Positions 973-63,796 of a DNA stretch of 64,000 nt are shown piece after piece; position 1 is the first letter of the stretch, and each line of letters opens with the position of its first letter. A program made the position numbers and the translations under genes. The stretch is taken from NCBI GenBank assembly GCA_965222225.1, contig CBDCTK010000002.1, positions 4,160,001-4,224,000 on the forward strand, read 5' to 3'. A model generated the notes under the pieces. That model was not told where the DNA came from. It was given only the letters and a program-made list of their open reading frames with translations, and did not search any database. The DNA is from Candidatus Poribacteria bacterium (GTDB taxonomy: Bacteria; Poribacteria; WGA-4E; JAJDTR01).

Positions 973-1106
973 GTAGGGTGGAATCTGCGATCAAGCGACT
1001 GAATAAGGAGCGATCAAAGGAATGGATTATGACTGCGATAGGAATCTCTATAGAAAATCCCACGCGATAGAGCTCCCATAGCAAATCGCGTACGATAGAA
1101 AGTCCT
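973..1106 (+). repeat. GTAG-type REP remnant filled with nested copies of the 36-nt element
   Basis: GTAGGGTG is followed by stacked left halves (GATCAAGCGACTGAATA), one intact inner unit at about 1012-1049, then stacked right halves (ATAGAAAATCCC, GATAGAGCTCCC, GATAGAAAGTCCT). Confidence 0.8.
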
Positions 1107-1167
1107 TTGGCGCCAGTAGGGCGTGATTCGATACTGTTCAAATTCGTCGTATTCCGCTCTCGCCTTC

Positions 1168-2079
1168 TTACTTCCCAGCCTTATACCGCGCCACTGGACT
1201 CCGTTCCGACGGTGCCTCCCTCACATACCGCGCCGGCATCGTCGGCTCCTGCCACCGCCCCGCTCGTTGCACCTCCTTCACGCTTGCCCCGGCCTCTGCA
1301 AGCGACACCGCAGACCCGATACGAAGCGAGTGTCCGCTAATCAATCCCGTCACTCCCGCTTCCGCCGCCCGCCGCTGTATCGCCGCGCGCCCCCCCTTCA
1401 CCCCCAGCCGATCGTCAGTCACATGATTCTGGAAGCGTATCCTCCGGAACAAAGCCCCCGACGCAATCCCCGCTCTCGTTCGATACCGCTCTATCAACCG
1501 CCGTGTCGATTCACAGATATACAGATTCTCGCCCTGGTCCTCCCCGCTTGTCCTCTTGCCGTAGACCTGAAGCCCCTCGGCTCTAACATCCTCCACATCC
1601 ACTGCAACCGCCTCCGAGATGCGTAACAGGCAATCGCTCATCAGCCTAATCATGGCGGCATCACGGGTGCCCGCCGCGGTATCTGACGATTCCGCCGCCG
1701 CACACACCCGCTCCACTTCGTGCCACGTAAGCCCGTCTACCTGGCGCCGCCCGCGCCCTTTACCTTCGCCGCGGATATCAGACAATGCGCGAGCGGTGAT
1801 GTCCCCAACCACATTGCCAACCCCACGGTACTCCGCCATCCACTTCACCGCGGACACGACCAGCTTGATCGTCGCCGGCGATTTCCCCTGTGCATACAGA
1901 AACCTGATATATTCCGCCAGCACCGCATCCGATAGGGCACGTCCGTCTAGCCAAGCTTCCAGCTTGCGGCTCGCGTGCTCATACGCCTTGAGCGTGTTAT
2001 CCGCCACGTTTGCCCGAATCTCCTGCCCCGTACCCGCGGCGATTCGCAACCCCCTATCCGATTCCTTGCCTTGCTTCAT
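1168..2079 (-). CDS. Cre-like tyrosine recombinase/integrase
   Basis: RDAAMI..LLRISE (catalytic R), GHSLR (HxxR), GRW and ARYV (catalytic Y); N-terminal core-binding-like region (NTLKAYE...KSPATIKLVVSAV). Confidence 0.9.
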   Translation of the reverse strand: MKQGKESDRGLRIAAGTGQEIRANVADNTLKAYEHASRKLEAWLDGRALSDAVLAEYIRFLYAQGKSPATIKLVVSAVKWMAEYRGVGNVVGDITARALSDIRGEGKGRGRRQVDGLTWHEVERVCAAAESSDTAAGTRDAAMIRLMSDCLLRISEAVAVDVEDVRAEGLQVYGKRTSGEDQGENLYICESTRRLIERYRTRAGIASGALFRRIRFQNHVTDDRLGVKGGRAAIQRRAAEAGVTGLISGHSLRIGSAVSLAEAGASVKEVQRAGRWQEPTMPARYVREAPSERSPVARYKAGK

Positions 2080-2226
2080 GATAAACCCCTCGTCAGATTT
2101 ATACCACCGTTGCCATATTCATCGACCGCCCAAGCCGTCGAGCATAACTGGCACCCCAAGTGAACATGGCAACACGAATATCGTTACATACAGCCAGTGT
2201 TGAGGAATCTCGACCTTTCTGCCTTG

Positions 2227-2596
2227 GAGCCTGTTTGAAAAGTACAGTTTGTAGGGTGCGATCAAAGGAATGAATAATGACTCCGATAGAGATCCCCTGC
2301 GATCAAGCGAATGAATAATAAGCGATCAACTGAACGAATAGTGAAGGAGCAACTGACCGATAGGGAAGGCGGTAGAGATCCCATAGAAAGTCCTGATAGA
2401 GATCCTACCAGCCTCTAAAAGCCCCCAGAGTGGGATCAAGGGAGATCCAATGAGCGAATAGCGAATGCGATAGGGATCCCTGATAGAGACTGCGATAGAG
2501 ATCCTAACAGGTATGTAGCAGCCAACAATGAAAACATGAAAAAACTCTCTACAAATGACCAAAAATGGCTTTGCCACCGATTATTCAAACAGGCTC
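2227..2596 (+). mobile_element. IS5-family-like MITE copy A, expanded by nested 36-nt elements
   Basis: Terminal inverted repeats GAGCCTGTTTGAA / TTCAAACAGGCTC; right flank is TTA, the stop codon of the adjacent gene. Colinear with copy B (16094-16304) apart from inserted units at about 2260-2406 and 2434-2505 and loss of one internal segment. Confidence 0.85.
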
Positions 2597-3567: not shown

Positions 3568-4002
3568 AGTTTTTTTCCCGTTCCTAGTCCTATTAGCCAT
3601 AATCATAGACCTCTCTGTTTTTTAATTCCTGATGAGCAAAACACTTCAACACGTAATATGTATTATAACAGGATTTATATAACTTAACAACCGAAAACAT
3701 CAAGCCCTTTCCAATTCAGCCCCGCCGCCCTTGTAGCCCCTCTTCTACGGTCGCAATCCCCCGGCGGACGCGCCCGCTGTTCGTGGCGTGGGGTACGCTG
3801 CACACTGCTATCAAGCCAGCTAGCCGGCGAATACCGAGTGCGGTAGACATCCCCTCCAGCCGGCGCCGCGCAAATACGCCTAAGCAACGGGCAACGGCAA
3901 CCCTCGAAGCGATGCGGGCTGCTTTGGTGTCGTGCCGAGGCGCCGCCCTGCGCCACCAACTGATCGAACATATTGATGGATTGAAAAACGATAAAGCGAA
4001 TG

Positions 4003-4099
4003 GCCAACTGACTGGATAATGAAGGATCCACTGAGATCAACCGACTGATTAGGGAGGACGATAGTAGATCCTGCGCGATAGAGTTCCCATAGAGATTCC
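4003..4099 (+). repeat. Nested 36-nt elements in front of an AATCC..TTCRGACAA repeat
   Basis: CCAACTGACTGGATAATG..GATCC..GATCAACCGACTGATTAGGGAGGACGATAGTAGATCCT..GATAGAGTTCCC..ATAGAGATTCC. Confidence 0.7.
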
Positions 4100-4456
4100 A
4101 TGAATCCTAGTTCGGACAATCCCGTCCCCTTCCCCACTCTCCACCGCTCTCTCAAGTGCAAAAGATTTACGGAGTTGGTAGTTAGAGACTGGCAATATTG
4201 AACAAGCACGTATACGTATGAGTGGGAGTGTAGTTATTTTCTGACACCTGCACATAAACGTGCTATTATACGGTAAGTATCAAGAAGTTCATCCGCTATC
4301 AGGGAAGGGTGGCATACGATAACAGCACACGACACAACAGCGAATTTATTATAGCGCTTCTCTATTGGCTTAGGTATAGTATAATGGGGCGGTTGCAACA
4401 CAGTGGCGATTGATTCGATACATGCAACACATGAAGATAAAAGAAGGGATAAACCA

Positions 4457-6358
4457 ATGACACGCTTTATTTGTATCCTAGCCTTGCTCCTAGGCCTGAT
4501 GACATGGGTATACGCCCAACCCGTCAACATGCCCGACCCAAACCTACGCACCGCAGTGCGCGAATCTCTTGATCTTCCAAATGGCGCACCGATTACGCGT
4601 GATGCTATGCTTCAGTTGATTAAGCTTCGTCCTGGAAGCCGCGGCATTGAAAATCTATCCGGTGTGGAGTTCGCAAAAAACCTCAGAGAACTATCAATCT
4701 GGGGCAACCCCATAACCGATCTCAGTCCTATCGCCGGACTAACTAAGTTGGAACTGCTGTACATGTGGGGGACACCGATTTCGGATATTACACCACTAGC
4801 GAATCTGGCGAATCTGATAAATTTGCGTCTGAACTATTGCAACGTTGCCGATATAAGCCCAGTTGCACATTTGCTTAAACTTGAGAAACTGTCATTAGCC
4901 GGAAATGGGATCACCGACGTTGGACCTCTTGCCAACTTAACGCAACTCCGACTCCTCAACCTCGAAAACAATGGCATTGTGGATGTGCGTCCGTTGGCGG
5001 GCCTGCGTCGATTAGAAACATTAACAATAGAGGGCAACCGTATAACAGACCACAGTCCACTTGATGGATTGTCGTTGGAACACTTTACACATGACCTCGA
5101 AACGCCGTGCGACATGGCGCCGCTTCCTTTGGAGCCTCGTATAGAGAATAGAAACTTCCCCTCCCTCTTTTCCGCCTGGATCGATCGGAATAAATACTCG
5201 GCATACGATTTGATCTTCTGCTGCCCTCGGTTCGAGAGTTGGCTTGTTGAAACGGCCGACGGTTTTCAATTCCGTACCGCGCATTCATCGTGGGATGGAC
5301 CGGTTCAGATACGCGACGGCTACCTAGAACAAAACCCGACTATGGTATTTTTGCACGGACTATCTGTAATTTGGCATGAGCTGGACTCCCTGCCCGAAGA
5401 TTCTCCTTGGTGGCTGCGTGATGAACAAGGGAACATACTTCCAGCCTGGGATATGGGCTTAATGAATCTTAATCATCCGGGTTGGCAGCAGCGGATGATT
5501 GACATAGCGGCGACTATAGATCAATGCGGTTTGTACGACGGGATTTTCATCGACGGCTGGAGTGAATGGCATAACGAACGGCGCGGGCAACTACCGGGGC
5601 AGGTGGCTATTCTCAAAGGGATACGCGAAAGGGTGCGGGACGATTTTCTTATCATGGTGAACACAAATACCTGGACAGCACCGGTGTCGGCACCTTACAT
5701 CAACGGACTGTTTTTGGAATCCGGCTTTCCGGGCGATAGCAACTCACCTGAAGATCTTGAAGAACGTCTGTCGGAACTAGAGGATACGCTGAGATGGGCT
5801 GAGACCACACTGCTGGAGCCTCGAATCACCGGACTCGAAGGAAGCAACTACCGTGACGAACCGCCAGACAACCCAAAGAATATGCGGTGGATGCGGGCGA
5901 CTACCACTTTGGCGCTCACGTTTAGCGACGGTTATGTTGCTTTCCCGTTACGAGGAGGACCTTGGTACGATTTCTGGAATGCCGACCTCGGACGCCCCGT
6001 CGGAGAGACTTTGCAGCTCTATGAACACCGCCCAGGTCTCTACATCCGTGAATTCACGAACGGTTGGGCGGTATACAACCACAGCGGCGCGGCGCAGGTT
6101 GTGACATTGCCGGAAGATGTACAATCAGTAGCTAGCGGATTGAGCAACACGGAACATGCCGTGCTTAACCTGGACGGCGATATTTTTTTGCGGGTGACGC
6201 CGAAGAATCCAGCGGACGTGAACGGGGACGGGGTAGTGAATATCTTGGATTTGACGTTGGTGGCACAGGGGTTCGGCGGCGATCGACCGGGCGCCGATGT
6301 TAACGGCGACGGCGTTGTTAATGTGTTTGATCTTGTTCTCGTGGCAAATGAGTTTTAG
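4457..6358 (+). CDS. Secreted internalin-type LRR protein with putative glycoside-hydrolase-like TIM barrel and C-terminal dockerin
   Basis: Signal peptide MTRFICILALLLGL; PDPNLRTAVRE cap; 22-aa LRRs (L..L.L..N.I.D..PL..L); YDGIFIDGW motif; two DVNGDGVVNILDL dockerin repeats. Confidence 0.85.
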   Translation: MTRFICILALLLGLMTWVYAQPVNMPDPNLRTAVRESLDLPNGAPITRDAMLQLIKLRPGSRGIENLSGVEFAKNLRELSIWGNPITDLSPIAGLTKLELLYMWGTPISDITPLANLANLINLRLNYCNVADISPVAHLLKLEKLSLAGNGITDVGPLANLTQLRLLNLENNGIVDVRPLAGLRRLETLTIEGNRITDHSPLDGLSLEHFTHDLETPCDMAPLPLEPRIENRNFPSLFSAWIDRNKYSAYDLIFCCPRFESWLVETADGFQFRTAHSSWDGPVQIRDGYLEQNPTMVFLHGLSVIWHELDSLPEDSPWWLRDEQGNILPAWDMGLMNLNHPGWQQRMIDIAATIDQCGLYDGIFIDGWSEWHNERRGQLPGQVAILKGIRERVRDDFLIMVNTNTWTAPVSAPYINGLFLESGFPGDSNSPEDLEERLSELEDTLRWAETTLLEPRITGLEGSNYRDEPPDNPKNMRWMRATTTLALTFSDGYVAFPLRGGPWYDFWNADLGRPVGETLQLYEHRPGLYIREFTNGWAVYNHSGAAQVVTLPEDVQSVASGLSNTEHAVLNLDGDIFLRVTPKNPADVNGDGVVNILDLTLVAQGFGGDRPGADVNGDGVVNVFDLVLVANEF

Positions 6359-6655: not shown

Positions 6656-6692
6656 GATCAAACGCCTTGACAATGACCGCGATAGAGTTCTC
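6656..6692 (+). repeat. Single degenerate 36-nt element
   Basis: GATCAAACGCCTTGACAATGACCGCGATAGAGTTCTC. Confidence 0.6.
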
Positions 6693-7415: not shown

Positions 7416-7524
7416 CTCAAAAAAATCTCCTTCTTTGCTGTCTAAAGGATGGGGGTAAGTTCAGTGCGATAGAGATCTCATACATGGCCCTTCCATCTTA
7501 ATCCTACAAGAGATGTCACTAAGC

Positions 7525-7680
7525 GAATCCTAACCCGCGTAATCCATTAATCTGTGTAATCAGCGATTCAGACAATCCCCTCTCCTCCCCATTTACCCCT
7601 CCCTACCCCCTGACCATCAAGCGAGTGATTGGCGAGTGATCAAAGGAGCGAATAGCGACTGCGATAGACAATCCCCTCAC
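7525..7680 (+). repeat. Empty AATCC-rich ..GATTCAGACAA repeat, followed by nested 36-nt elements
   Basis: AACCCGCGTAATCCATTAATCTGTGTAATCAGCGATTCAGACAA is the empty counterpart of 60863-60941. ATCAAGCGAGTGATTGGCGAGT-GATCAAAGGAGCGAATAGCGACTGCGATAGACAATCCC lies at about 7616-7676. Confidence 0.75.
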
Positions 7681-8055: not shown

Positions 8056-8589
8056 ATGTGCGAAACAAACGAAACACTCAAAATCTCACACGAAGACCAC
8101 CTAGATGCAATAGTGAACCGCGTCTACGAAAGCTGGGGGACCTCGCAGGTTGTTGATTCCTGGATGGAGAAATATCCCCGGTGGGCACATCTTGGTCGCA
8201 AGATATTTCGAGATGCCGCACGCGTTTCTAATCCTCGGTCTAACAAATTTTCAACCGAATACCGCGAAATATATGAGCGCACATTAGCGCACTATCGTGA
8301 AGAACGCCGCGCACTACTTGAAGCCATAGCTAGCAAGGCTTCAAGCGCAATTTCGCAGATTGTTGAAAGTGTGCGCTCAAACGTTACCAACGTCCCTATT
8401 GACAACGCCCACGACCTGCTTCATCTCTCTCGCGCTATCAACCCCCTTAAGGACATAGCGCTAAAGGCCTTACAAGAGATAGATTATGACCATAGTAACT
8501 CCCATGCCCGCAATACTAACCGAGATGCAGTCGATCGGCTGCTCCGCTACAAAGACTTGGCTGACGAACTCACGGAAGATGAAGGATGA
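8056..8589 (+). CDS. Hypothetical helical protein, candidate terminase small subunit
   Basis: GGAG RBS; 177 aa; overlaps the start of the large terminase. Assignment is by position and size only. Confidence 0.55.
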   Translation: MCETNETLKISHEDHLDAIVNRVYESWGTSQVVDSWMEKYPRWAHLGRKIFRDAARVSNPRSNKFSTEYREIYERTLAHYREERRALLEAIASKASSAISQIVESVRSNVTNVPIDNAHDLLHLSRAINPLKDIALKALQEIDYDHSNSHARNTNRDAVDRLLRYKDLADELTEDEG

Positions 8590-10285
8590 TGAAGCGTTCT
8601 GCCAACTCAGAGCCCATGCCGGCTACGTCTACCCCAATCTCTTTGTCGATTACTACATCAGAAACACCAGCTACCAACTGCTCGCGCTCAAAGATTTCCA
8701 CATCGAAATCCTCAACGCCATCAAACCGGGCGTGTACGGTAAGCAAATAAACGTCCAAGCACCGCGCGGCACCGGCAAGACGACCCTCGTTAACGGTCTA
8801 ATCCCTCTTTGGAGGATCTGCTACAAACACTTCGATCTCGCCATGGATAGACAGCCGGAGGAGTTTATCCTCATTGTCGGTCGTAACGAACGTGCAGCGC
8901 GCCAACGCATAACCGAAATCCGCGACGTTCTCGAACACAACCCCCTCATCCGACGCGACTTCGGCGACCTCGTCGGTTCCCCGTGGACAAAAACCGAAAC
9001 CGACACCCGCAACGGCATCGGGCTGAGACCTCTCGGACGCGGCTCATCCCCCCGCGGCGCCCTCCTCGGCGATGTCCGTCCGACGTTGAAACTGTGTGAC
9101 GACATCGAAGATCCAAAACGCTGCCTCAATCCCGACCTCCGAGAAGAAGACAGGGACTGGTTCATGACCGACTTCATGTACGCCGGCGACCTGGGGAGCA
9201 AACACTCCAACACCATCATCGTCGATACCGTAAAACACCCCGAATCCCTCTCCGAACACCTCCGCGCCCTCCCCGGTTGGCGGACACTGCGGTTTGAAGC
9301 GGTGATGCATCCTGAAGACATCTACCACCCCACCGCCGAACGCCTCTGGAAACAGTGGGACGGATTCTATAGCGATACAACCCTTGACGACGACGAACGC
9401 GAAGAGAACGCGAATGCGTTCTACGCGAAACATCAAGATGAGATGTCCGGCGGCGTGAAGATGTTGTGGCCGGAAAAACTGTCGTACATCCACGTTCGCA
9501 AAGAGATTCTCGAACGCGGCTATCACCGCGTCATGCGCGAACTCCAAAACGACGCGCGCGACCCCGCGATGTCGCTCTTCAAGATGGATGGTGCTATCAC
9601 GTTCTCCGTCATCAAGGAAGGCTTTCGCCGCAGCGACGGGCATGTGGTTCCGTGGCACGACATCGGCGGATTCACCACCTACCTCGACACCATGGGCGGA
9701 CGCGATGCGGTTGCCAACAGCTACGCCTGCGCTGTCGTCATGGCGTGGGAACCGCTGCCCGGCGGCAGTTCCATGAACCCCGACTCCCTCTCCGGCGTAA
9801 ACGGATATATCCTGTCGGCGTGGATGGATCGCGTCGCATTGACCGAGCAAATGGAGCACGCCATCCTCCTCGCACAGCGCGCCGAGGCGATGTTGGCGCC
9901 CGCGTACCCGAAATCCCACTTCGTCTGCGAACAGCGGCCCGACAAAGACGGCACAATAAAGATGTCAACCGACCATGCGTTCCGTGCGATGAACGAGCGC
10001 CACCGCTTTGAACGCAGAATCATGTATCACAAACAGCACCAGAACAAAGAAGATCGAATCGGTACGCTTGAACCCGCGATAGCAAACGGCTGGCTCGCGT
10101 TTAACGAGAAAGACTTGCCGGGCGAGTTTTGGAAACAGTTTCGCCAATTCCCAACCGCCGACCATAACGACGCACCCGACGCCGTCCAAGGCGCCTGTCG
10201 CTCTCGCATCACGACCACCGCGCAACAACGCGTCGATCTATCTGCAGCTCGTCGATTCAACCGCAACCCCGTCGTGAGACTGTAA
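8579..10285 (+). CDS. terL: Phage terminase large subunit
   Basis: Walker A QAPRGTGKTT, GRGSSPRG, Walker B LCDDIED, C-terminal nuclease motif FRQFPTADHNDAPDA. Likely ATG at 8579. Confidence 0.9.
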   Translation: MKDDEAFCQLRAHAGYVYPNLFVDYYIRNTSYQLLALKDFHIEILNAIKPGVYGKQINVQAPRGTGKTTLVNGLIPLWRICYKHFDLAMDRQPEEFILIVGRNERAARQRITEIRDVLEHNPLIRRDFGDLVGSPWTKTETDTRNGIGLRPLGRGSSPRGALLGDVRPTLKLCDDIEDPKRCLNPDLREEDRDWFMTDFMYAGDLGSKHSNTIIVDTVKHPESLSEHLRALPGWRTLRFEAVMHPEDIYHPTAERLWKQWDGFYSDTTLDDDEREENANAFYAKHQDEMSGGVKMLWPEKLSYIHVRKEILERGYHRVMRELQNDARDPAMSLFKMDGAITFSVIKEGFRRSDGHVVPWHDIGGFTTYLDTMGGRDAVANSYACAVVMAWEPLPGGSSMNPDSLSGVNGYILSAWMDRVALTEQMEHAILLAQRAEAMLAPAYPKSHFVCEQRPDKDGTIKMSTDHAFRAMNERHRFERRIMYHKQHQNKEDRIGTLEPAIANGWLAFNEKDLPGEFWKQFRQFPTADHNDAPDAVQGACRSRITTTAQQRVDLSAARRFNRNPVVRL

Positions 10286-10372: not shown

Positions 10373-10560
10373 GCCCTGTAGGAGCGATCAACCGAGCGAA
10401 TAGCGATCAACTGAGCGATTAGCGAAGGCGATAGAGTTCCTCATGTCTGTAGAGAGGAAACGCGCACAATCTTCGCGCTCCAGCTATATGTAGGGTGGAA
10501 TCAACCGAGCGAATAGCGAGGGCGATAGAAAATCCCGCGCGATAGAGATCCTACCAGCCT
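10373..10560 (+). repeat. Two REP-like palindromes, each filled with nested 36-nt elements
   Basis: GCCCTGTAGGAGC[units 10386-10441]CATGTCTGTAG and GTAGGGTG[units 10498-10552]ACCAGCCT. The empty form GTAGGGTGCGCACTGCGCACCAGCCT is at 16118. Confidence 0.8.
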
Positions 10561-14304: not shown

Positions 14305-14365
14305 TCAACTTGGCAATTAACAAACCGCTGTGGCATAGCTGATTGGAGAACATGTCGGTTTCACT

Positions 14366-15481
14366 ATGGCATCCGTAAAGCTAGAGAACCTGACAAAGCG
14401 TTTCGACGACGTTATCGCACTTGACGGCATCAACCTTGATGTTGCCGACCAAGAATTCTTCGTGCTGCTTGGCCAAACCGGTGCGGGCAAAACCACAGCG
14501 TTACGCTGTGTGGCCGGGCTTGAACATGCCGAAGAAGGGGGAATCTTTTTTGATAGCGAGCGGATTGACGACCTTTCCCCTGCGGAGCGTGATGTCGCCT
14601 TTGTGTTTCAATCTCACATTCTCTATCCGCACCTCACCGTCTACGAAAACATGGCATTTCCGCTACACCCGCGTAAACTGTCGACTGACGAGATCGACAA
14701 ACGCGTCAAAGAGATTGCCGCTATGTTACATATCGAACCCCTTTTGGGACGAAAACCCGGTCAATTGAGCGGTGGTGAAACACAGCGTGTCGGGCTTGGA
14801 AGAGCGATGGTTCGTCGTCCGAGATTGTTCTTGATGGACGAACCTATCTCCAACTTGGATGCGAAACTTCGCAGCGAGATGCGCGCCGAAATCAAGTGGA
14901 GACAACGGCAGTTGGGCACGACGATGTTGTACGTCACGCATGACCAAATTGAAGCAATGTCGATGGCGGATCGAGTGGCTGTGTTAGAGGAAGGGAGTAT
15001 TCAACAGATTGGTACACCGATAGACATTTACAATTCCCCCGCCAATCTGTTTGTCGCCGGTTTCATCGGCAACCCGAGCATGAATCTCCTTTCCTGTCAC
15101 CTTGTCGCTGATGGAGATCAATTCTTCGGGAGACTTGCGGGTGGGTTCCAATTCTTGATTACTGACTCCGAAACTGTTCGTACCTTGACTAACTCAGCCA
15201 AGGATGCACGCGTGGTTCTCGGCGTGAGGCCTGAAGATGTGATTGTAAACCATCAAGCGATGCCCGGTGCCACATCCATAGAGATCTACAGTTTTGAACC
15301 CTTGGGTGCGGAGACCATTGTCGAACTAATAATTGGAAAGAATGAGCAAGGTGCAAATCTCATTCTAAGAACGCGAGCGTCGGCTACCCTAAATGTCGAA
15401 ATTGGACAAACGCTCAATATGGCGTTTGTACCTGAACGACTCCATTTCTTCTATCGCGATACTGGACAGGCGATTTGTTAA
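14366..15481 (+). CDS. Sugar ABC ATPase (MalK-like)
   Basis: GQTGAGKTT, LSGGE, LMDEP, YVTHDQ, TOBE-like C-terminus. Confidence 0.93.
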   Translation: MASVKLENLTKRFDDVIALDGINLDVADQEFFVLLGQTGAGKTTALRCVAGLEHAEEGGIFFDSERIDDLSPAERDVAFVFQSHILYPHLTVYENMAFPLHPRKLSTDEIDKRVKEIAAMLHIEPLLGRKPGQLSGGETQRVGLGRAMVRRPRLFLMDEPISNLDAKLRSEMRAEIKWRQRQLGTTMLYVTHDQIEAMSMADRVAVLEEGSIQQIGTPIDIYNSPANLFVAGFIGNPSMNLLSCHLVADGDQFFGRLAGGFQFLITDSETVRTLTNSAKDARVVLGVRPEDVIVNHQAMPGATSIEIYSFEPLGAETIVELIIGKNEQGANLILRTRASATLNVEIGQTLNMAFVPERLHFFYRDTGQAIC

Positions 15482-15617
15482 TAGTCAATCTTGGCAAGTC
15501 TTGATGCACCATGAGACCTCATGCAAAATACTCAGCGTTTAGGTATCTATGGAGGCCCATGCCATTGGGTTGCCTTTACTATATGGTATGAAAAACGATT
15601 TCTGCGGAGATAATCAG

Positions 15618-16665: not shown

Positions 16666-16884
16666 ATCAAGTTTACACAAGTTGTCACCGGAAACAGCAG
16701 GGGAGATTCACTGATGCACAAGTATGCCGCTCGTAAGCTGGACACAATTGATCTTGTTAATTCTTTGCCCATGAGTTTGAAGAACTCATTGCCATTCGTC
16801 TTTATGTGATTGTCTGATTATCAGATCCATGTTAAACTTTCACAGAAAGATTTGGCCCACCGTGTAAGAAGGGAGTGAGTCCAT

Positions 16885-54247: not shown

Positions 54248-54336
54248 CGTATTTTTTTACAGACGGTTGCGCTTTAATGCCTAATTTTCAGGCTCGAATT
54301 GGTGGGGGATTTCGATCGTAGTCATTATCCATTCCT

Positions 54337-57300
54337 TTAATCGGTGCCCACCCTACAATTACGCAGCCAGTTTAAACCCAGCGCCGCGCTGCAGACAATC
54401 TTTGGCAGGTCGGCATTCTGGGTCTCCTGTTGCCTCGTATTCCGCACATGCATGTTGTGTTGGCGGTAGAGATGGCTCAAGTTCCTGAGCTGCGCGGTTC
54501 CCGTCACCCCGTTTCGGCGCAGCAGATTAAGTTCTCGGTTGAGGGCGTCCGAAATCGAGCCGCGGAAGGATTCCTCCATCTCCTTGATGCCCTCTCGAAC
54601 GTCTTCGTCGCGTTCCTCCTTAAAGATGAACTGCAATTCCCGAAGCACATAGCGTTGCGCCTGCGTCAACGAAAGTCTATGCCGCCGTTCGGTTTGGCGA
54701 TGTCTGATTTCTTGAGCGAATATCCGCTTGACCCGCATGACGGTCTCGTTGTAATCGGGAGGCAGCCTGCCACCCGGGAGGTCGGGAGTGCACTTGATGG
54801 TGTTGAGGATTCGGGTGATATCTCTCGAGATAATCTCGCCCGCCTCGTCCAAAAGGAAGAGTTGCTGAAATCGACCGGCTTGACAAAACAGATAGACGCC
54901 TCTTGAACTTTTCGGCATGGCGGCGCGGATTCCGTCTCGAAGATTCGCGATTCGTTCAAATTCCTCCGGATCGTCTCGGCGCAACTGCCTCAGCATTTCT
55001 TCCGCCTCGTTAAGGTCCATCAACTCTTCATCGTCATCGAACAGACTCAACTGATCGCCTTTTTGTTCATAGATGGCGTACATCGCATCTGGGTTGAGTT
55101 GCTCGGATTTGTCAAGGATAGCGGCATCCTCGCCTATGGTGTCGTGTATGTCCTGAATGCGGAAGCGCAGTTTCTCTCGCAGCCCCAAATTCCGTTCAAT
55201 GCCGGTTTCCGGGAGAAAGTTAAATCCATAGATTTCATCGTGTTCGCTACCGATACGGTCAATTCGCCCGAATCGCTGGATAAGCCGCACGGGATTCCAG
55301 TGGAGATCGTAGTTGATGATTTTGTTCCCATCCTGTAGGTTTAATCCTTCCGCCAGAACATCGGTCGCGATGAGCATGGACAGCTCCGATTCGCCGCGTT
55401 GGAATCGGTATTCCGGATTGGCTTTCGGCGCGAACCGTCCCACCGCCCGTTCCTTGCTTTTATCTCCGCTAAAGATGACATCAATATCGTCTCGCTCGGT
55501 ATTGGGGTTGAGATTTTCAAACAGATAACGCGCCGTGTCCGCATATTGCGTGAAGATTAGGCGTTTCCCGTCGCGAAGAGGAGACTCGCTTAAGCGGTCT
55601 TTGAGCGTTTGAAGTTTGGCGTCTTGGTCGGGCGTAATCGGATTAACTAGTCCCAAAATCTCACTCAAGAGTTTTATGTCGTTTCCGAGGTGTTCTTGGA
55701 GCAGATTGACATTGAAGTCGGCAATCTCGTATCGTCCCGAAGCCTTCCTTAACTCCTCCATGAGTTCCTGTTCTTCCACGGCGGATGGCTCGTAAAGTAG
55801 CGCCTGAGCCGCGTCACCCGCCGGGACAATTCCGTTTTCGAGTGCCTCCGCGAAGAGTCGGTGTAGGTTGAGCAGTCTGTGAATCGTTTGCCTAAAGGCG
55901 TACACGCTTGACTCAAAACGTTTGAATAGAAGCACTCGCATCAGGCCTCGAAGGTTTGCGCCCGAACTCTGTAAGTTGATATAGGGTTCCTGCTTCTGTT
56001 TAGACTCAACCACGTAGTTCCACAGTCCGTAACGCGCGTAGGTAAGCTCGCCTACCGCGATTGAAGTTGAATCTCCGCGGCGCGGTTTACCCAAGTAGCC
56101 GCGCAACTCATGATAGAGCCCCTGATAGGTGTCCTCGATGCTGTAGGATACGGTTTCCAAAATACGCTTGGGAAAGAATTGCTTGTTTCCGCCGACGAGG
56201 ACGTAAGCCTTCCGATTGCCGTTTAGGTACTGCTGAAATCTGGACGGATCAACGGGTTGTTCGGTCTGAGCATCGAAACCGTACCATCGCAAGATGTGAT
56301 TTCGTGTGCGTCGGATAAGGATGTTGCTCAGTATATCGGGCAGATTCCGCTCACCCTTCTCAATTTTGCGGAAATACTCTCGTATATCGGGCGGGTCTAT
56401 TGGCAGATCGGAGATGTCGTTGGGGTGGAAGAGCTTAATTTGATGGAACACATCCCACGCGCTCTTGTTGCGCGGGGTTGCGGTGAGGAAACAGCAGCGC
56501 CGCCCGGTCCCCAAGAACGACTGGACGACCTTATAGCGTTGTGTATCGGAATGGCGAAAGTTGTGGCTTTCGTCAATGAGCACAAAATCGCGGTCGCGGT
56601 ACATGACATCATCGAGTATCGAGGAGGGTATTCCATCTATGTCCTCACCGACTCGCTCATGCAACTTTCCCATGGAAAGCACGCGGGCGTTGAGGTGATA
56701 GACCTCATTGTAGCGTTCCCACATGTCGACCAGCGGAGCCGGGCAAATAATCAACGGACGCGCATTCTCCGTCCATTCAAAGTGCTTGATGATGGCGGCG
56801 CCGACGTAGCTCTTTCCGAGACCGACGACATCCGAAACAAAGACGCCGCCGTTGTCGCGAATAATCTGCACCGCTTGTCGGACGGCGACCTTTTGGAAGT
56901 CCGCCAACTGTCTGGTAAGGTCATCCGCCCAGAGTAGCTCCCGATCATCCCCGCCTTCCAGTCGGTCTTTGACTAATTCGTAGAGCGTTTTCATGTAAAT
57001 GTCGTAGGGCTTGACGAGTGCGAATCCCCAGGAGGCCTTCATCGCCTCCATCAGGGACTCGTCAAAGTCTTGCGAGTCGTCCCAGAGTTCGTCGAACCAG
57101 CGACCCAGTTCGGCGTGGTTGGCGTTTCCCTGCACGACAACATTAAGCTCGCTGTTGTGATTCAGACCGGACAACGTGAGGTTGGACGACCCGACAATGG
57201 CGGCGCCCTTCTCGTATCGTCCATCTTCGCGATAGTCGAAGATGTAGGCTTTGGCGTGTAGCCGTCCTTTGGTATAGACGCGCACTAAAAGGCGCTTCTC

Positions 57301-57687
57301 GGCGATCATCCGGACTAGCGACTTTATCAGGACTTCGGCTTGGTCAGTCTGATCCATGAATTCAACGGATTCGCTGATGTTTTCCGCGGTGTCTTCCGCC
57401 ATCTGCCGGAGATTCGCCCGTTTGGGGTAAACTTGGGCTTCGGCAATTTCCGCAACCTGTTCCAACCTTTGATGCCCCTCGGCAAGCTGCTCCAGCGTCT
57501 CCAGATTCGTGGTGTTGCCGATCAACAGACGGAGTTCTTTTACACCCTTGAGTTCTTCGGCAATACTCTGGAAACCGGAGAGGAAAAAGTATCCGACTGC
57601 GAACCTCGCCCTCTCGGTTGAGTCAAGAATGAGGCTGATGTGATCGACTAATTTTTCGCTGCGGTTGTCGATGATGTCGTGTGGCAT
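54337..57687 (-). CDS. PLD nuclease + SNF2/SF2 helicase fusion
   Basis: LHAKAY..GSSN (HKD-type), DVVGLGKS, DESH, TATP, FTQY.DT, EGLNLQ, QRFGRIDRIG. Confidence 0.9.
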   Translation of the reverse strand: MPHDIIDNRSEKLVDHISLILDSTERARFAVGYFFLSGFQSIAEELKGVKELRLLIGNTTNLETLEQLAEGHQRLEQVAEIAEAQVYPKRANLRQMAEDTAENISESVEFMDQTDQAEVLIKSLVRMIAEKRLLVRVYTKGRLHAKAYIFDYREDGRYEKGAAIVGSSNLTLSGLNHNSELNVVVQGNANHAELGRWFDELWDDSQDFDESLMEAMKASWGFALVKPYDIYMKTLYELVKDRLEGGDDRELLWADDLTRQLADFQKVAVRQAVQIIRDNGGVFVSDVVGLGKSYVGAAIIKHFEWTENARPLIICPAPLVDMWERYNEVYHLNARVLSMGKLHERVGEDIDGIPSSILDDVMYRDRDFVLIDESHNFRHSDTQRYKVVQSFLGTGRRCCFLTATPRNKSAWDVFHQIKLFHPNDISDLPIDPPDIREYFRKIEKGERNLPDILSNILIRRTRNHILRWYGFDAQTEQPVDPSRFQQYLNGNRKAYVLVGGNKQFFPKRILETVSYSIEDTYQGLYHELRGYLGKPRRGDSTSIAVGELTYARYGLWNYVVESKQKQEPYINLQSSGANLRGLMRVLLFKRFESSVYAFRQTIHRLLNLHRLFAEALENGIVPAGDAAQALLYEPSAVEEQELMEELRKASGRYEIADFNVNLLQEHLGNDIKLLSEILGLVNPITPDQDAKLQTLKDRLSESPLRDGKRLIFTQYADTARYLFENLNPNTERDDIDVIFSGDKSKERAVGRFAPKANPEYRFQRGESELSMLIATDVLAEGLNLQDGNKIINYDLHWNPVRLIQRFGRIDRIGSEHDEIYGFNFLPETGIERNLGLREKLRFRIQDIHDTIGEDAAILDKSEQLNPDAMYAIYEQKGDQLSLFDDDEELMDLNEAEEMLRQLRRDDPEEFERIANLRDGIRAAMPKSSRGVYLFCQAGRFQQLFLLDEAGEIISRDITRILNTIKCTPDLPGGRLPPDYNETVMRVKRIFAQEIRHRQTERRHRLSLTQAQRYVLRELQFIFKEERDEDVREGIKEMEESFRGSISDALNRELNLLRRNGVTGTAQLRNLSHLYRQHNMHVRNTRQQETQNADLPKIVCSAALGLNWLRNCRVGTD

Positions 57688-57702
57688 TTGCTTTCAAGTA
57701 CC

Positions 57703-58311
57703 TCACAGGTTGCCCAAAGTTGTCCATGCTTCATCATAGTTTTCTAGGATTTCCTCACCTTGCCAAGAGTTGTAAATAGCTCGTCCGATTTCCTCAAGCA
57801 TAGATTCATCGTACCACCCGCCTATGTTTGCATGTTCTCGCGCTATAGCAATGAAGTCCTCACGGGAGTGCGGCTTATCCTTGTATTTTTTCGGTGTCTT
57901 GACACCCGCCAATTTCTGTTCTAAAACCTGATAAACTTGCTCAACGGTCATGGAGCGCAAATCAAGATATCCGACTGTCATTAGGAACCCGGGAATCTCT
58001 GTATCGTCAAGACAGACGGGTAGAATATACTCTCGGTATTTCTCGACAAAAGCTCTTGCCCGGGCACTCTCGCGTTCATGCTTTGGCAACCACTTGCGGT
58101 CATAGTGTTCGGACAGGAACATCACGCAGTAATGCGCTTGATTTTGATAAACCGATGACAATTCATCATAGAGATTCTTCCCTTGGAGGTTAGGTTTCTC
58201 ATATTCGTCGTAAAAGACCCGGTAACCTCCCGATTTTAGAAGCCGAGCTAATTCTTTGGCGTGGAGGCGATCTTCTCCAGCAAAGGAAAGGGCGACATCG
58301 TACTTTTCCAT
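57703..58311 (-). CDS. TIR-domain protein (TIR_2) with short C-terminal extension
   Basis: YDVALSFAGEDR, VFYDEYE, FLS..Y..KW..HE (putative catalytic E), YILPV, GYLDLR. Confidence 0.88.
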   Translation of the reverse strand: MEKYDVALSFAGEDRLHAKELARLLKSGGYRVFYDEYEKPNLQGKNLYDELSSVYQNQAHYCVMFLSEHYDRKWLPKHERESARARAFVEKYREYILPVCLDDTEIPGFLMTVGYLDLRSMTVEQVYQVLEQKLAGVKTPKKYKDKPHSREDFIAIAREHANIGGWYDESMLEEIGRAIYNSWQGEEILENYDEAWTTLGNL

Positions 58312-58556: not shown

Positions 58557-58799
58557 ACATTCCGCTCCTCTGGAGCGGGAGAGACAGACACTCCTAGGCT
58601 ACAGACATGGACAATCTCTATCGCACTCGTTATTCACTCGCTTGATCCCCGCTGGGGCTTTGGTGCACGGGGTTTTGGCGTTTCTATACACCTTCGGGAT
58701 CTCTATCGCACTCGCTATTCGCTCCCTTGATCCCACGCTGGGGCTTTTAGAGGCTGGTGCGCAGTGCGCACCCTACAAATGTACTTTTCAAACAGGTTC
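58557..58799 (-). mobile_element. Partial MITE copy C with two single 36/37-nt insertions
   Basis: One TIR (TTCAAACAGGTTC-TTA); colinear with copy B; units at 58696-58731 and 58610-58646; ends in a GCTCCAGAGGAGC palindrome instead of the second TIR. Confidence 0.8.
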
Positions 58800-60862: not shown

Positions 60863-60941
60863 TTGTCTGAATCGCGGATTCAGGGATCTCTATCGCACTC
60901 GTTATCCACTCGCTTGATCGGATTAAGGGATTACGCGGATT
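60863..60941 (-). repeat. TTGTCTGAATCGCGGATT repeat carrying one clean 36-nt insertion (60883-60918)
   Basis: Minus strand: TAATCCG[ATCAAGCGAGTGGATAACGAGTGCGATAGAGATCCC]TGAATCCGCGATTCAGACAA. Confidence 0.85.
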
Positions 60942-61060
60942 GAGTTTGCCTGAAGCGCCGATACGCCTTATCAGTTCGCTTAAACTGCGAAGCAGGGCTA
61001 ATTCTCCGTGTAAATTATAGCATACCTTGCGCGGTTAAGGCGGCCGCGGGGTTGTTTGAT

Positions 61061-61243
61061 TCACGCCGCTATTTTAGCCATGCTGTCTAGCGCCTCTGCT
61101 ACATCACGTACCGCAAGAAGGAACGCTTCTATGTCCTCGTCTTTCTCATAATCTTCAAGCGCAACGGAAAGGTATATCTTTGCGTCCTCCGGATCGCGTA
61201 GTTGTTCAATATGAAAGCCTTTGAAGCGTCTATAATTGCTCAT
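61061..61243 (-). pseudogene. Truncated addiction-module antidote protein
   Basis: LRDPEDAKIYL..ALE......AFL.A.RDVAEA, stops before the expected HTH. Confidence 0.65.
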
Positions 61244-61363
61244 TTTCTAACTCCCTAGCAGCTCTGATCGCCCGAACCAAACTGCAACCGAAGCTCAAAA
61301 CCCCGACTCGTGGGTTCGCATCATCACATATTGTCACATATTGTCACAAATTTTCGGGAGAAT

Positions 61364-61389
61364 GTCGCGATTCGGAGATCGCTCCTACA
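61364..61389 (-). repeat. GTAG-family REP
   Basis: GTAGGAGCGATCTCCGAATCGCGAC on the minus strand; a degenerate copy lies at about 51068-51092. Confidence 0.7.
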
Positions 61390-61544
61390 GAACTAGGGAT
61401 CGGAGCGTGTTGCCTGCATCGCGGAATGGCGGGGATTCCATCCTTGATTTGATTAAAGGATTACGCGGATTGAATTCGTTTGAGATGGATAGACCTAGAC
61501 AGCATACCGTCATTTTTCATCTGACTCGGTGAGATACTTCCTCT

Positions 61545-62768
61545 TTAGGTCTTATCGTTATCTTGCAACGATTTTGCGGCGAAAATGGCCAAACGTAATT
61601 CTTCTCCAAAGAGTTCATATAGAGGGGTTTTGCCGCTGAGCGCCTTGCTTTCATTGAGAATAATTCCGACCCCCTCACCCCTACGCTCCAGAAAGTGTCG
61701 CCTTGCTACATGTTTCTTCATATTATCGTCTAGCGTAGTTTCTGACAGTAGGCGAGCGAGCAGTTCGTTACGCGTCGCTTGGTTGTAGGGCAAATCGTCC
61801 ACCGTTAAGCTATTTGCCAATGCACCCGGCGAATAGAGTTCTAGCCGGTCCGTGAACATAAACAGGCGAATTTTCGATCCGGCTTTTGAATAATCTCTAT
61901 GTACAACTGCATTAACCAGTGCCTCAAAAACAGCTCTCATGCTGTATTGCGATCGTTCTATTCTGCCAATCTCCTTGCGAGCGGAGACTTGGTTATATCT
62001 TTCAACAAATTTGAATGCATCCACAATCTGGCGATCCAGCGGTCCCCTAAAATCCTTAGCATCAATCTGGTAGTTCGCATCCTTTTCCACGCCATTGTAA
62101 AATACGGCTTGAATGAAACTGTTATAGAGGTAATCGTCGGGGCTATCATGACACATCAACAGACCGGCTACCGAGGCGCGGTATTCATGACCATCTTTGA
62201 CCAGCAATCGTCTTTTAAGTAGTAAATCTTCTATCTTCTCACGATCAGCCGCATCCTCTGTGATAAATCGCTGATACAGCTTTTCCCTTAATGTTTCTTT
62301 GCGAGTGTTCGGGACAAACTGCTCATCAAAAGAGATTCTATGTGCTTGTGATCGGCTTTGTAACAATCGCGCCAACTGCTCGGTGGCCATCTCTCTTTTA
62401 CTGCTGCCTTGGCGGATGAAATAACCGTTAGATGATTTATGAACAAACGGGCTCCGAGGCACTTCGATTTTTAAGAGATTTTTATTATCAACTTGCAGTT
62501 TTTCTGTAACAATGTGAACCATAGGGTCAATGTTGTCTCCGCATATTTCAACTGCTGTTTTCTCTGTCCTATCAAGATTCTGGCGGTCAATACCGACAAT
62601 TTCACTATCATCGTCAACGCCGATTAGTATCACGCCACCGTTCGCGTTGGCAAACGCAGCGATTTCATCGCCGAGACTCTCTCTGTGATGCAACTCTCTT
62701 TTGAATTCAATCGTTGAGTCTTCTCCCAGATATATTTTTTCAATGAGGTCGGTCAGACTGTCGAACAT
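61545..62768 (-). CDS. AlbA_2/Schlafen DNA-binding domain + RecG-C-like ATP-binding protein
   Basis: GEDSTIEFK, IAAFANANGG.I.IGV.D, EALVNAVVHRDY, SPG.L, ERRGEG. Confidence 0.9.
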   Translation of the reverse strand: MFDSLTDLIEKIYLGEDSTIEFKRELHHRESLGDEIAAFANANGGVILIGVDDDSEIVGIDRQNLDRTEKTAVEICGDNIDPMVHIVTEKLQVDNKNLLKIEVPRSPFVHKSSNGYFIRQGSSKREMATEQLARLLQSRSQAHRISFDEQFVPNTRKETLREKLYQRFITEDAADREKIEDLLLKRRLLVKDGHEYRASVAGLLMCHDSPDDYLYNSFIQAVFYNGVEKDANYQIDAKDFRGPLDRQIVDAFKFVERYNQVSARKEIGRIERSQYSMRAVFEALVNAVVHRDYSKAGSKIRLFMFTDRLELYSPGALANSLTVDDLPYNQATRNELLARLLSETTLDDNMKKHVARRHFLERRGEGVGIILNESKALSGKTPLYELFGEELRLAIFAAKSLQDNDKT

Positions 62769-62913
62769 CGCTCATTCTCCAGATGAATACGCTATTATCT
62801 GCATCACGGATTGGCGGGGATTCCATCCTCGATTCGAAATCGGAATTACTGGGCGCTGCATTCTCAGAAATTGCATTGATTGGATTGGTTAGGACACTGG
62901 TGCTGCCTTCGCG

Positions 62914-63330
62914 TTACCTAGGCGCATCAAATATGAGAAAGACAAAGACGATGAAGGCAATTTCGATTAGGTAGAAGATAACGAACGTGACAGAGAAAAT
63001 TGCCGATACCCAGCTACATTTTGGTTTGTCTTTGTGTTTGAGAAGATCCATCTTAAAGTCGGTATCGGATTGGACTCTGACCTCGTCGTATACTTTTCGA
63101 AATAGCCTTTCTTGCCAAAGGAAATATCCGTTCAAGATCCAAAAGCCCATAACGGGGAGAATCAACGCCAAAGCAAAATAGGGATTCTCAACCTCGTGTT
63201 TAGGGATCAACACCATGGCTGCCACAATAATTATCATGCTCCAACTTTTTACCAAGAAACTGTTTCTTCCTAATCGGTTTATGACAGAATGGGTTATTTT
63301 CAAATTCTCGACTGCCTTTTCAGTGCAGTT
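62914..63330 (-). CDS. Multi-TM protein of the INR..NSF..K.W family (TIR-associated by recall), possibly degenerate
   Basis: VINRLGRNSFLVKSW, FWILNGYFLWQERLFR.VYD. The expected start behind GGAG reads ACG (63330), with TTG at 63303 as an alternative. Confidence 0.65.
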   Translation of the reverse strand, partial: NCTEKAVENLKITHSVINRLGRNSFLVKSWSMIIIVAAMVLIPKHEVENPYFALALILPVMGFWILNGYFLWQERLFRKVYDEVRVQSDTDFKMDLLKHKDKPKCSWVSAIFSVTFVIFYLIEIAFIVFVFLIFDAPR

Positions 63331-63796
63331 CGTGGTTTTTTACTCCAGTATCAAGTTTAGAAGCTGGCGATATATCGGGCTAGTTCATTCTCAGTTTATT
63401 TCCTAGTGTAATCCTTGGCTCGACTTTTTTGCATTCAGCAAGTTTAACAGACCGTGTAGATCAAACCATTCAGAATAACGGGTGAGATTTTAGCAATTTG
63501 GTCTGTTTTGCCGACCATTGAGAAAGTCTACCCTGTGGACGCGAATGCCTGTTTCACCCACCGCGGTGTATCGGGAAAGGTCGCCGGTGGTTTTTCGAAC
63601 AGCCTTTCACCTATCAGGACATACTATCGCCTACGTCGTCCATTCGGTTAATTGGTCGTTTGAAGTTATTTGATTACTACCCATTTAGTCGCTTGATCGC
63701 CATTCACTCCTTTAATCTCATGCTACAAATGTACAAAGTCGATCTTAGGATTTGCCCGACATGCTAAGTTTGGAAAAGCACCGGGCAGGGAGCGGA

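Follow-up and report, generated by a model that had tools for sequence, protein, structure and literature searches.

The stretch of DNA analyzed here (hereafter the window) comprises 64,000 nucleotides (nt) of a Candidatus Poribacteria genome, namely positions 4160001-4224000 of the forward strand of contig C2 in an assembly of 5.70 Mb, two contigs and 49.8% G+C. It contains many copies of a purine-rich unit of 35-37 nt that is very probably a mobile element, one of the smallest yet seen, and as such the first outside cyanobacteria that resembles their small dispersed repeats (SDRs) in kind. A previous sequence-only reading of the window had proposed a very small non-autonomous mobile element, a view supported by host repeats occurring both empty and filled, repeated hits of the same sites by units with differing stems, nesting of units, and an insertion into a gene. 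That reading lacked the covarying hairpin described below, the minus-strand orientation of the copies at 54-63 kb (the minus strand carries all window copies from 54 kb onwards), and one copy at 54306-54342 (minus strand). Apart from this additional copy, we found the unit at every place that it had listed, using regular expressions (head plus hairpin; tails) together with a covariance model (R1) run with filters off. The model gave 17 window matches at E ≤ 1, of which 12 at E < 1e-4; ten window units were the seed of R1, so their matches come by construction. The 36-nt consensus of the sequence-only reading, searched with up to 3 mismatches, matched the window at 58696-58731 and 60883-60918, both on the minus strand, with no match in 100 shuffles.

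Structure and distribution of the unit

Aligned copies, 35-37 nt long, read G|ATCAA-NN-GA-NN-G(A/G)A(T/C)A-NN-GA-NN-GC-GATAG-AGATCC(C). The head (G)ATCAA and the motif GCGATAG are invariant, the tail is pyrimidine-ended and varies with the lineage, and the only freely variable part is the four NN dinucleotides, which covary: N1N2 pairs with N7N8, and N3N4 with N5N6. The hairpin thus consists of two 2-bp helices with, between them, a tandem G.A/G.A internal loop formed by the facing GA dinucleotides and, at the end, a G-N-N-N-A pentaloop (GAATA in 312, GGATA in 238, and GAACA in 54 of 748 units). There are 91 stem combinations among these 748 units, and every variable pair shows three or four standard forms. 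The unbiased count of pairing comes from a set of 361 units gathered without a pairing requirement, in which four standard pairs are formed in 317 units, three in 38, and two in 6. An alignment fitted to the model and made up of its best matches, with 150 units (139 of them distinct) taken at 80 loci in other genomes of Poribacteria, has 98.0% of its cells paired versus 66.4% when shuffled; 214 of its 556 cells are changed on both sides, a figure as high as in none of 500 shuffles, and the covariation is lost when the partner is slid by 1-3 columns. Since G.T or T.G cells (163) far exceed A.C or C.A cells (18), the fold belongs to the purine-rich strand, and the hairpin is confined to this sense strand.

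Computed as RNA, the minimum-energy fold of five window units contains the covarying helices in three of them and adds an outer 3-bp AUC/GAU helix. The corresponding ATC/GAT is near-invariant (678 of 748 units), so that this helix is not testable by covariation. We rejected a helix that would close the unit by pairing GATC of the head with GATC of the tail, as the two do not covary: the head is invariant and the tail variable. A known RNA family was likewise rejected, the 64-kb window having no Rfam match at gathering score. One locus of another Poribacteria genome (L058:5796-5968) contains five head-to-tail copies with a period of 34 nt, in which the tail ATCCC passes straight into CAAACG and the head is without GAT; a head variant, CCTCAA, with 14 copies in the window's genome, looks like a tail-head fusion of the same sort.

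The unit is abundant in this genome, with a total of about 750-870 copies in 545 clusters along the chromosome. The 12-mer GATAGAGATCCC occurs 206 times versus approximately 0.3 expected per strand, contig C2 has 871 instances of head plus hairpin in which the four pairs are all formed, and the core pattern TCAA-N2-GA-N2-G-N3-A-N2-GA-N3-CGATAG occurs 755 times in the genome. When 176 genomes of the phylum were searched, 21 had at least one match to the core pattern and the other 155 had none, and the reversed pattern, used as control, was absent from all 176. Carriage is universal in two genera: the window's own (10 of 10 genomes, 508-1194 matches each) and a second one from another family of the same order (4 of 4 genomes, 155-179 matches each), in which head, hairpin, and GCGATAG are identical and the tail is mostly TCTTC-like. 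The carrier metagenome-assembled genomes (MAGs) are 88-96% complete. Stray counts elsewhere (17 matches in one genome, 5 in another, 2 in each of two, and 1 in each of three) could reflect transfer or MAG contamination. A scan of one genome per prokaryote species yielded at least 80 loci, all of which, among the matches listed, came from Candidatus Poribacteria sponge-symbiont MAGs. In 2.9 million viral contigs of IMG/VR, the core pattern had 11 matches, none with four stem pairs and all attributable to chance, on which ground carriage by phages or plasmids was rejected. A literature search at the level of titles and abstract openings found no published account of such repeats in Poribacteria, and four 11-nt strings of the motif gave chance matches only.

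Target sites and evidence for mobility

Empty counterparts provide one line of evidence for insertion. With 10-nt anchors flanking the unit, they were found for 202 of 734 units, corresponding to 182 distinct events and 143 unique target sites. Similarly, 177 of 636 units lie in a host repeat that short anchors show both empty and filled, and 36 of the 636 have an uninterrupted paralogue under thresholds of ≥50 nt for either flank, ≥85% for identity, and ≤8 for gaps. The three empty/filled pairs put forward by the sequence-only reading are all real: the host GTAGGGTGCG^CA.. is empty at 16118-16138 and filled at 2251 and 10490; for AAGCCCC..GGGG^CG GAAGGTG, the empty site is 16161/16162 and the filled one 58696-58732; and TTAATCTG^TG lacks the unit at 7554/7555 but has it at 60883-60919. 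At 18 identical target sites, we found two to four different stem combinations, which must therefore be independent insertions. Units also insert into one another, after the first G of the loop, after the loop, in the 3' stem, or ahead of GATAG and, in reverse orientation, at the G^C step of GTGCGATAG. Such nesting accounts for the heads piled up and then the tails piled up at 989-1106, 2301-2406, and 2434-2505, the layout of the first being as expected from nesting.

One insertion concerns a coding sequence. The window encodes a GC-rich, XerC/D-like tyrosine recombinase (303 aa, positions 1168-2079, minus strand). It is one of five close paralogues that share 79-100% amino acid identity, and the genome also has more distant and broken copies. 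In the paralogue C2:460255-461199, a 37-nt unit stands behind CGGG and replaces GGCT, adding 11 codons in frame and leaving the open reading frame (ORF) open (315 aa). The same point is empty in the other four paralogues, including the one in the window. For a coding family with four intact members, insertion is the only sensible reading. The sequence-only reading had described all copies as intergenic. This stands for the window as far as can be judged, where some copies lie over short, probably spurious ORFs; genome-wide it does not, given at least one true in-frame insertion and 169 of 871 units inside crude ORFs, a depleted number as these span 82% of the DNA.

The 143 unique sites define the junctions. 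The base at -1 is G in 137, and that at -2 is C in 82 and G in 41 (C/G in 123). In the empty site, +1 is mostly C (84) or A (35), and +2 mostly G (69) or A (50), with a purine in 119. The usual target is therefore S-G^C-R, with the new copy immediately 3' of the G. The 5' junction is exact, always G|ATCAA, and no site has a target duplication. Losses amount to 0 target bases in 18 sites, 1 in 40, 2 in 49, 3 in 20, and at least 4 in 16 (counts that assume a unit end CC(C), some of the largest losses perhaps being anchoring artefacts), the commonest lost strings being CG, A, C, and CA. The absence of duplication and the loss of a few bases, both noticed earlier in the window, thus extend to the whole genome. 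Flank alignment, which had been suggested as a way to find exact ends, fixed the 5' end and the target rule, but the 3' ends vary (ATC, ATCC, ATCCC, ATCT, or ATCTT), and one junction base may be shared because +1 is often C.

As the sequence-only reading had stated, several unrelated host families are used: GTAGGGTGCGCACTGCGCACC, GTAGGCGGGGCATCTTGCCCCGC, GTAGGAGCGATCTCC, a TAATCC-type repeat, and the AGCCCCNNNGGGG hairpins. Many hosts are repetitive extragenic palindromes (REPs) tagged with GTAG. Units lie 1-8 nt 3' of GTAG in 172 of 734 cases, with a peak at 5-6 nt, that is, in the 5' arm or apex of the hairpin, and GTAGG occurs within 30 nt upstream of 224 units versus CCTAC within 45 nt downstream of 59. 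Within the two most frequent REPs, the GTAG strand carries 62 units and the opposite one 5, though S-G^C-R exists on both strands; many of the 62 are amplified copies, yet more than 20 stem types are involved. The unit accordingly favours two kinds of site, namely other units and, in REP hairpins tagged with GTAG, the apical part of the 5' arm on the strand that bears the tag. Such a tag is absent from the surroundings (30-45 nt) of 430 of 734 units.

Two host repeats deserve description. A composite one of approximately 140 nt (16097-16235; 58600-58790 on the minus strand; about 2229-2530) comprises TTGAAAAGTACAG.., a GTAG-REP, two AGCCCCNNNGGGG hairpins, and GACAGGTAT... The other (7525-7575 and 60920-60945) consists of TAATCC-like heptamers (CGCGTAATCC, TTAATCC..) and ends in GATTCAGACAA. 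With its load of REPs and units, together with several insertion sequence (IS)-like families, the genome is very rich in repeats. On contig C2, copies within these families are 97-99.9% identical; one family of 1.27 kb has about 47 of them, one of 1.06 kb about 23, and those of 1.0 and 0.8 kb about 10 apiece.

Comparison with four congeners over 51 kb of synteny (genes 70-90% identical) points to turnover. None of the 5 window units concerned has a counterpart at the orthologous place, and the congeners carry units or composite repeats where the window's genome has 4-126 nt between genes. The differences at such sites are whole composite repeats and hence reflect turnover rather than clean single-unit events. 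In the same comparison, a 1.3-kb window stretch (15479-16787) is missing in congener G005, and congeners G005, G009, and G008 have inserts of 255-440 nt (repeats or unrelated DNA) where genes of the window abut (14305-14366; 57687-57703).

Some observations limit the case for mobility. A search for polymorphism at orthologous sites and in contigs of public sequencing runs, along lines that the sequence-only reading had named, produced no clean allelic or orthologous single-unit empty/filled pair, all empty sites being paralogous. The site 60883-60919 is not alignable in congener G005 outside the host repeat. Contigs from four public sequencing runs break at repeats, with joints that connect paralogous repeats and not alleles, and the RNA run among them has high depth over repeat bins, which does not show transcription. 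Moreover, amplification of host repeats has carried along many of the copies (stem type AG/AT, for example, has 59), so transposition events must be well below the copy number. We also considered, and tentatively rejected, the possibility that the unit forms one end of a larger IS: 92 of 545 clusters have a repeat of 400 nt or more within 1.5 kb, and the distance to the end of that repeat varies among the top-ranked cases. On balance, we consider it very likely that the unit is mobile.

Table 1. Units, empty sites, and host repeats in the window (coordinates in the window; scores from the R1 model).
Position	Strand	Feature	Score
989-1106	+	Cluster: head+hairpin modules 989-1011 and 1012-1034; tails 1037-1047 and 1066-1076, plus degenerate ones	16.9 bits (989-1011)
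1012-1048	+	Unit within cluster 989-1106	49.4 bits
1456-1457	-	Empty paralogous site within the tyrosine recombinase gene 1168-2079 (minus-strand sequence CGGG^GGCT)	
2260-2296	+	Complete unit, stems AG/AT, apex of host GTAG-REP (GTAGGGTGCG^)	55.7 bits
2301-2406	+	Nested cluster: heads at ~2301, 2324-2346, and 2347-2369; three tails, the last ending at 2405; host ACCAGCC next	
2347-2382	+	Unit in nested cluster 2301-2406	34.1 bits
2434-2505	+	Unit 2444-2480 within the stem of an outer unit; outer tails 2482-2505	55.6 bits (2444-2480)
4003-4099	+	Degenerate heads; complete unit 4035-4071; extra tails 4077-4087 and up to 4099	46.4 bits (4035-4071)
6656-6692	+	Degenerate unit; regular-expression tail 6681-6691	18.9 bits, E 0.066
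7465-7479	+	Solo tail (GCGATAGAGATCT); regular-expression match 7468-7478	
7554-7555	+	Empty site, TAATCC-type host repeat (TTAATCTG^TG); filled counterpart 60883-60919	
7615-7674	+	Head+hairpin 7615-7637, then directly complete unit 7638-7674	56.6 bits (7638-7674)
10383-10441	+	Partial head behind GTAGGAGCG, then complete unit 10405-10441	54.1 bits (10405-10441)
10499-10552	+	Unit 10499-10535 in GTAGGGTGG^; second tail 10541-10551; host continues as TACCAGCC	55.5 bits (10499-10535)
16097-16235	+	Composite host repeat, empty: REP 16118-16138 and two AGCCCCNNNGGGG hairpins; empty sites 16127/16128, 16134/16135, 16161/16162, and 16213/16214	
54306-54342	-	Unit in 3' arm of GTAGGGTGGGCACCG^ REP	40.8 bits
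58611-58647	-	Unit behind AGCCCCAGCGGG^, filled composite host repeat 58600-58790	54.7 bits
58696-58732	-	Unit behind AGCCCCAGCGTGG^, filled composite host repeat 58600-58790	57.5 bits
60883-60919	-	Clean single unit, TAATCC-type host repeat	58.2 bits
63684-63717	-	Degenerate head+hairpin (3/4 pairs) behind GTAGCATGA, then another partial head; regular-expression match 63695-63717	

Among the other genes of the window, NCBIfam models point to a 1116-aa protein with phospholipase-D and SNF2-helicase parts that resembles anti-phage DrmD/PLD (54337-57687, minus strand), a weak resemblance to a terminase large subunit (8486-10285, plus strand), a leucine-rich-repeat protein with a GC-type dockerin end (4403-6358, plus strand), and an ECF sigma factor fused with some 750 additional residues (51401-54247, plus strand).

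Orientation, candidate enzymes, and possible routes of movement

The orientation of the unit tracks replication, not transcription. The two flanking crude genes share the orientation of the unit in 239 cases and oppose it in 224, while the two mixed classes number 121 and 118, so there is no bias. By contrast, when GC skew is scored in 100-kb windows with units masked, the sense strand lies on the negative-skew strand in 589 of 871 units (odds ratio (OR) 0.24, p ~1e-23). The same orientation bias appears with the skew of ORFs only (OR 0.31) and persists by clusters (516, majority-scored, OR 0.27) and among singletons (341, OR 0.24). In empty host REPs, the GTAG strand is biased likewise (OR 0.07-0.24). 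The best DnaA match, at 2.61 Mb, is about 0.1 Mb from the global minimum of the cumulative skew (2.51 Mb); a second DnaA-like gene is found at C2:602775-603212. Units number 166 on the plus and 85 on the minus strand in the arm left of the origin (0.9-2.5 Mb), 55 and 89 at 2.6-3.1 Mb, and 17 and 36 at 0-0.8 Mb. The sense strand thus appears, with some uncertainty, to be mostly the leading-strand template, that is, to have the sequence of the nascent lagging strand. The cumulative skew of contig C2 has many direction changes between 3.1 and 5.6 Mb, an irregularity that suggests many inversions or assembly joins at repeats.

The sequence-only reading had seen no mobilizing enzyme in the window, and none is evident there. 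The recombinase at 1168-2079 differs from the element in phyletic pattern: three genera of the order contain close homologues (68-76% identity), which are also present in g6 genomes with 0 units, for which reason we rejected it. Units do lie near four of the five paralogues, at inconsistent places, and the recombinase looks like a mobile gene in its own right. Among enzyme families, Y1_Tnp (IS200/RAYT-type HUH transposases) was found in 34 of 41 relatives, including all 10 and all 4 genomes of the two carrier genera. The window's genome also encodes a 257-aa Y1 protein at C2:2563961-2564705. As for reverse transcriptases (RVT_1, E ≤ 1e-5), the main carrier genus has them in 4 of its 10 genomes (with a weak match, 27.5 bits, in the window's genome) and the second in 2 of 4.

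The overall explanation that we favour, a family of non-autonomous mobile elements of 35-37 nt in two Candidatus Poribacteria genera, comes, taken as a whole, a little short of an even chance. The unit would be recognized by its hairpin shape and its invariant unpaired bases, as a folded single strand read by a protein acting in trans, and would move via a single-stranded intermediate in a manner coupled to replication, with the function supplied in trans. This single-strand, replication-coupled route seems to us about evenly balanced between right and wrong. As for the enzyme, one of the Y1 (HUH, RAYT/IS200-like) transposases of the genome is the likeliest candidate: no other obvious enzyme that reads hairpins in single strands occurs in all carriers, and the orientation bias extends to the host REPs. 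We propose it only tentatively. A further possible, though rather speculative, view is that of a REP hyperparasite: a 36-nt self-folding single strand, read solely by its tandem-G.A hairpin and a few fixed bases, and written into hairpin apices at the fork. The writer might be a REP-associated Y1 enzyme acting in trans or an undescribed replication-coupled copy-in process.

Several results count on the other side. Y1_Tnp is also present in 20 of 27 non-carrier relatives, and no enzyme is linked with the element in the genomes examined. Two RAYT loci were inspected, and both are bracketed by host REPs rather than by units as ends. One RAYT (C2:3080254-3080728, 157 aa) is bracketed by inverted host REPs, the units there being inserts in those REPs; specifically, the module AGCCCC..GGGGCGACAGGT of the composite host repeat flanks it in inverted orientation (a REPtron). 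The second RAYT-like gene (C2:3088861-3089350; ~260-750 of locus L126) is broken by a TAG and flanked by inverted GTAGGAGCGATCTCC..GTCGCGA REPs. Both loci, where units occur as inserts in the REPs, are REPtrons of hosts and not of the unit. The sign of the skew flips many times beyond 3.1 Mb, which makes the absolute strand assignment uncertain. In the five window units, RNA folding energies compared with shuffles indicate no special stability (z -0.02 to -1.37), and DNA folding parameters do not recover the hairpin. Finally, in comparison with IS200/IS605 elements, the unit has a single hairpin in place of two subterminal ones and a sloppy 3' junction with target loss, and its orientation relative to GC skew, irregular as this is, is opposite to that of IS608 and ISDra2.

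Three other explanations were weighed. Movement could proceed through RNA, the hairpin of a sense transcript being recognized and its cDNA integrated by target-primed or microhomology-mediated joining, as was reportedly proposed for SDRs by Elhai in the form of RNA-mediated retro-mobility. The tolerance of G.U-type pairs on the sense strand only (the 163 versus 18 cells above) agrees with it, as do the RNA folds that yield the covarying helices in 3 of 5 units and add the AUC/GAU helix, and the combination of an exact and a sloppy junction with small target deletions, which is typical of reverse-transcription-based insertion. We nevertheless regard this route as improbable: RVT_1 is limited to the 4 of 10 and 2 of 4 carrier genomes mentioned, and orientation ignores neighbouring genes (239 versus 224) and follows GC skew. 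G.T and tandem G.A pairs are stable in DNA too, so the strand asymmetry needs no RNA. Template switching at the fork, without a dedicated transposase, is similarly unlikely in our opinion. A nascent 3' end in G (or CG) would stall near a hairpin apex, pair by 1-2 nt with the complement of another unit, have some 35 nt copied, and return to its template a few bases downstream. The exact 5' junction, with G at -1 (137 of 143) and C/G at -2 (123), can be read as microhomology with (C)G|ATCAA, and this process would also fit the variable 3' ends, the loss of 0-3 target bases, sites at or next to hairpin apices, and a sense strand that, by GC skew, is preferentially the nascent lagging strand. However, 1-2 nt of homology is scant for a recurrent ectopic switch, and the required stem pairing and invariant bases in hundreds of copies go unexplained.

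The third explanation dispenses with transposition of the unit, which would be a structured motif selected by the host (a protein-binding site or RNA element) and spread only as a passenger of REP or MITE (miniature inverted-repeat transposable element) hosts and by local duplication. Covariation could then be due to selection on each copy in place, and large sets of copies do share stem type and host, such as AG/AT in GTAGGGTGCG^, as well as forming tandem arrays like the five copies of period 34 in L058. We find this account very improbable in view of the differing stem types at 18 identical sites, the nesting of units within units in both orientations, the in-frame insertion in a coding paralogue, the 430 of 734 units lacking a GTAG-REP within 30-45 nt, positions that differ between congeners, and the absence of an orientation bias towards genes. 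Mobility of the unit itself therefore remains our preferred reading.

Comparison with known small repeats

The closest known elements appear to be the cyanobacterial SDRs (SDR1-8 of Nostocaceae), compared here by description. In the 2008 work of Elhai and colleagues, SDRs were reportedly 21-27 nt long and nested in their own copies and in mini-transposons, and SDR4-6 reportedly formed hairpins supported by compensatory changes. In Nostoc, SDRs are often embedded in tandem heptamers, to which the TAATCC-like heptamers of the host repeat above may be a parallel. Like them, the unit is very short, dispersed, highly repeated, and non-coding, and both a hairpin with compensatory changes and nested insertion in its own copies were found here. 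SDR passages also appear in PMC3116915, and the length of SDR5 is stated as 21 nt in a passage of PMC13756078. As described in part of PMC4390886, SDR5 inserts between nt 3 and 4 of GCGATCGC, GCG^ATCGC. The unit likewise inserts at a precise point of a short sequence, with the left junction (C/G)G^ATCAA versus GCG^ATC in SDR5. A passage of PMC5861425 gives SDRs as reported only in Nostocaceae. The unit belongs to another phylum, is longer (35-37 versus 21-27 nt), has its own motif (tandem G.A, invariant head, GCGATAG), and loses 0-3 target bases. The window's genome contains no photosystem reaction-centre gene (Photo_RC), and the cyanobacterial octamer GCGATCGC (HIP1) is not in excess in it (120 versus 87 expected); the genome is thus no cyanobacterial one. 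The comparison with SDRs made by the sequence-only reading is hence apt as a likeness, but membership among SDRs is not claimable.

The attC sites of integrons are also recognized as folded single strands, with structure conserved over stem sequence and recombination beside a G; they measure 57-141 nt, have R and L boxes, and occur at cassette ends beside the integron integrase. The unit shares the conservation of structure and the junction beside G, whereas the attC length, R/L boxes, and an integron integrase were none of them seen with it, and the multi-copy tyrosine recombinase beside two unit clusters differs from the element in distribution.

REPs, as defined in passages of PMC6006769, have GTAG or GTGG 0-2 nt 5' of a hairpin with a basal stem of 7-20 fully paired nt. 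GTAG-tagged REPs and REPINs are described as mobilized by RAYTs (passages of PMC3733652; PMC3116915; PMC6006769). The unit resembles REPs in being a short, non-coding, intergenic hairpin repeat with hundreds of copies, in showing the same GC-skew bias in this genome, in the presence of RAYT genes, and in a proposed movement as single strands. It differs in having neither the GTAG/GTGG tag nor the 7-20-bp fully paired stem, with a GATCAA head and helices of 2+2 bp (and perhaps a 3-bp ATC/GAT one) set apart by 2x2 loops instead, and it behaves as a parasite of REPs in their 5' arm or apex, the RAYT genes inspected being flanked by host REPs. IS200/IS605 elements, according to passages of PMC6006769, are precise at both ends, have hairpins at both, and have their active strand on the lagging-strand template. 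The unit resembles them in lacking terminal inverted repeats and target duplication, in having a hairpin on one strand only, in inserting 3' of a short sequence on that strand, and in the presence of Y1 genes in the genome. Its orientation bias is strong and seems linked with replication, although the irregular GC skew and the dnaA position put the sense strand on the leading-strand template. IS200/IS605 elements insert 3' of a specific tetra- or pentanucleotide, whereas the unit specifies only 1-2 nt (G at -1, as in 137 of 143 sites, and C or G at -2), and 125 of 143 sites lose at least 1 nt. MITEs duplicate their target. They measure 70-300 bp and have terminal inverted repeats of 15-30 bp (as stated in part of PMC3733652), whereas the unit, with its 35-37 nt, has no head-tail complementarity or covariation and no target duplication. 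Judged by the defining features of REPs, MITEs, and standard IS200/IS605 derivatives, the unit belongs to none of these classes.

How DNA of 20-40 nt can be mobile has been an open question for SDRs since 2008, SDRs being confined to one family and their mechanism not found. The Poribacteria unit offers what appears to be a further and unrelated example, from a phylum of uncultivated sponge symbionts, and has the advantages of hundreds of copies in each of 14 genomes, a sharp structure, abundant covariation, a target rule, and a replication-linked bias. It also offers a contrast between enzymes, as Y1 transposases are present in every carrier and reverse transcriptases mostly missing, and the question is testable with oligonucleotides and purified proteins. 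In practice, these repeats break short-read assemblies of Poribacteria, and the units can enter genes in frame and inflate and reshape intergenic regions between congeners. If the unit were truly a hyperparasite of REPs, it would represent the smallest known mobile DNA outside cyanobacteria and a tractable model for SDR-like movement.

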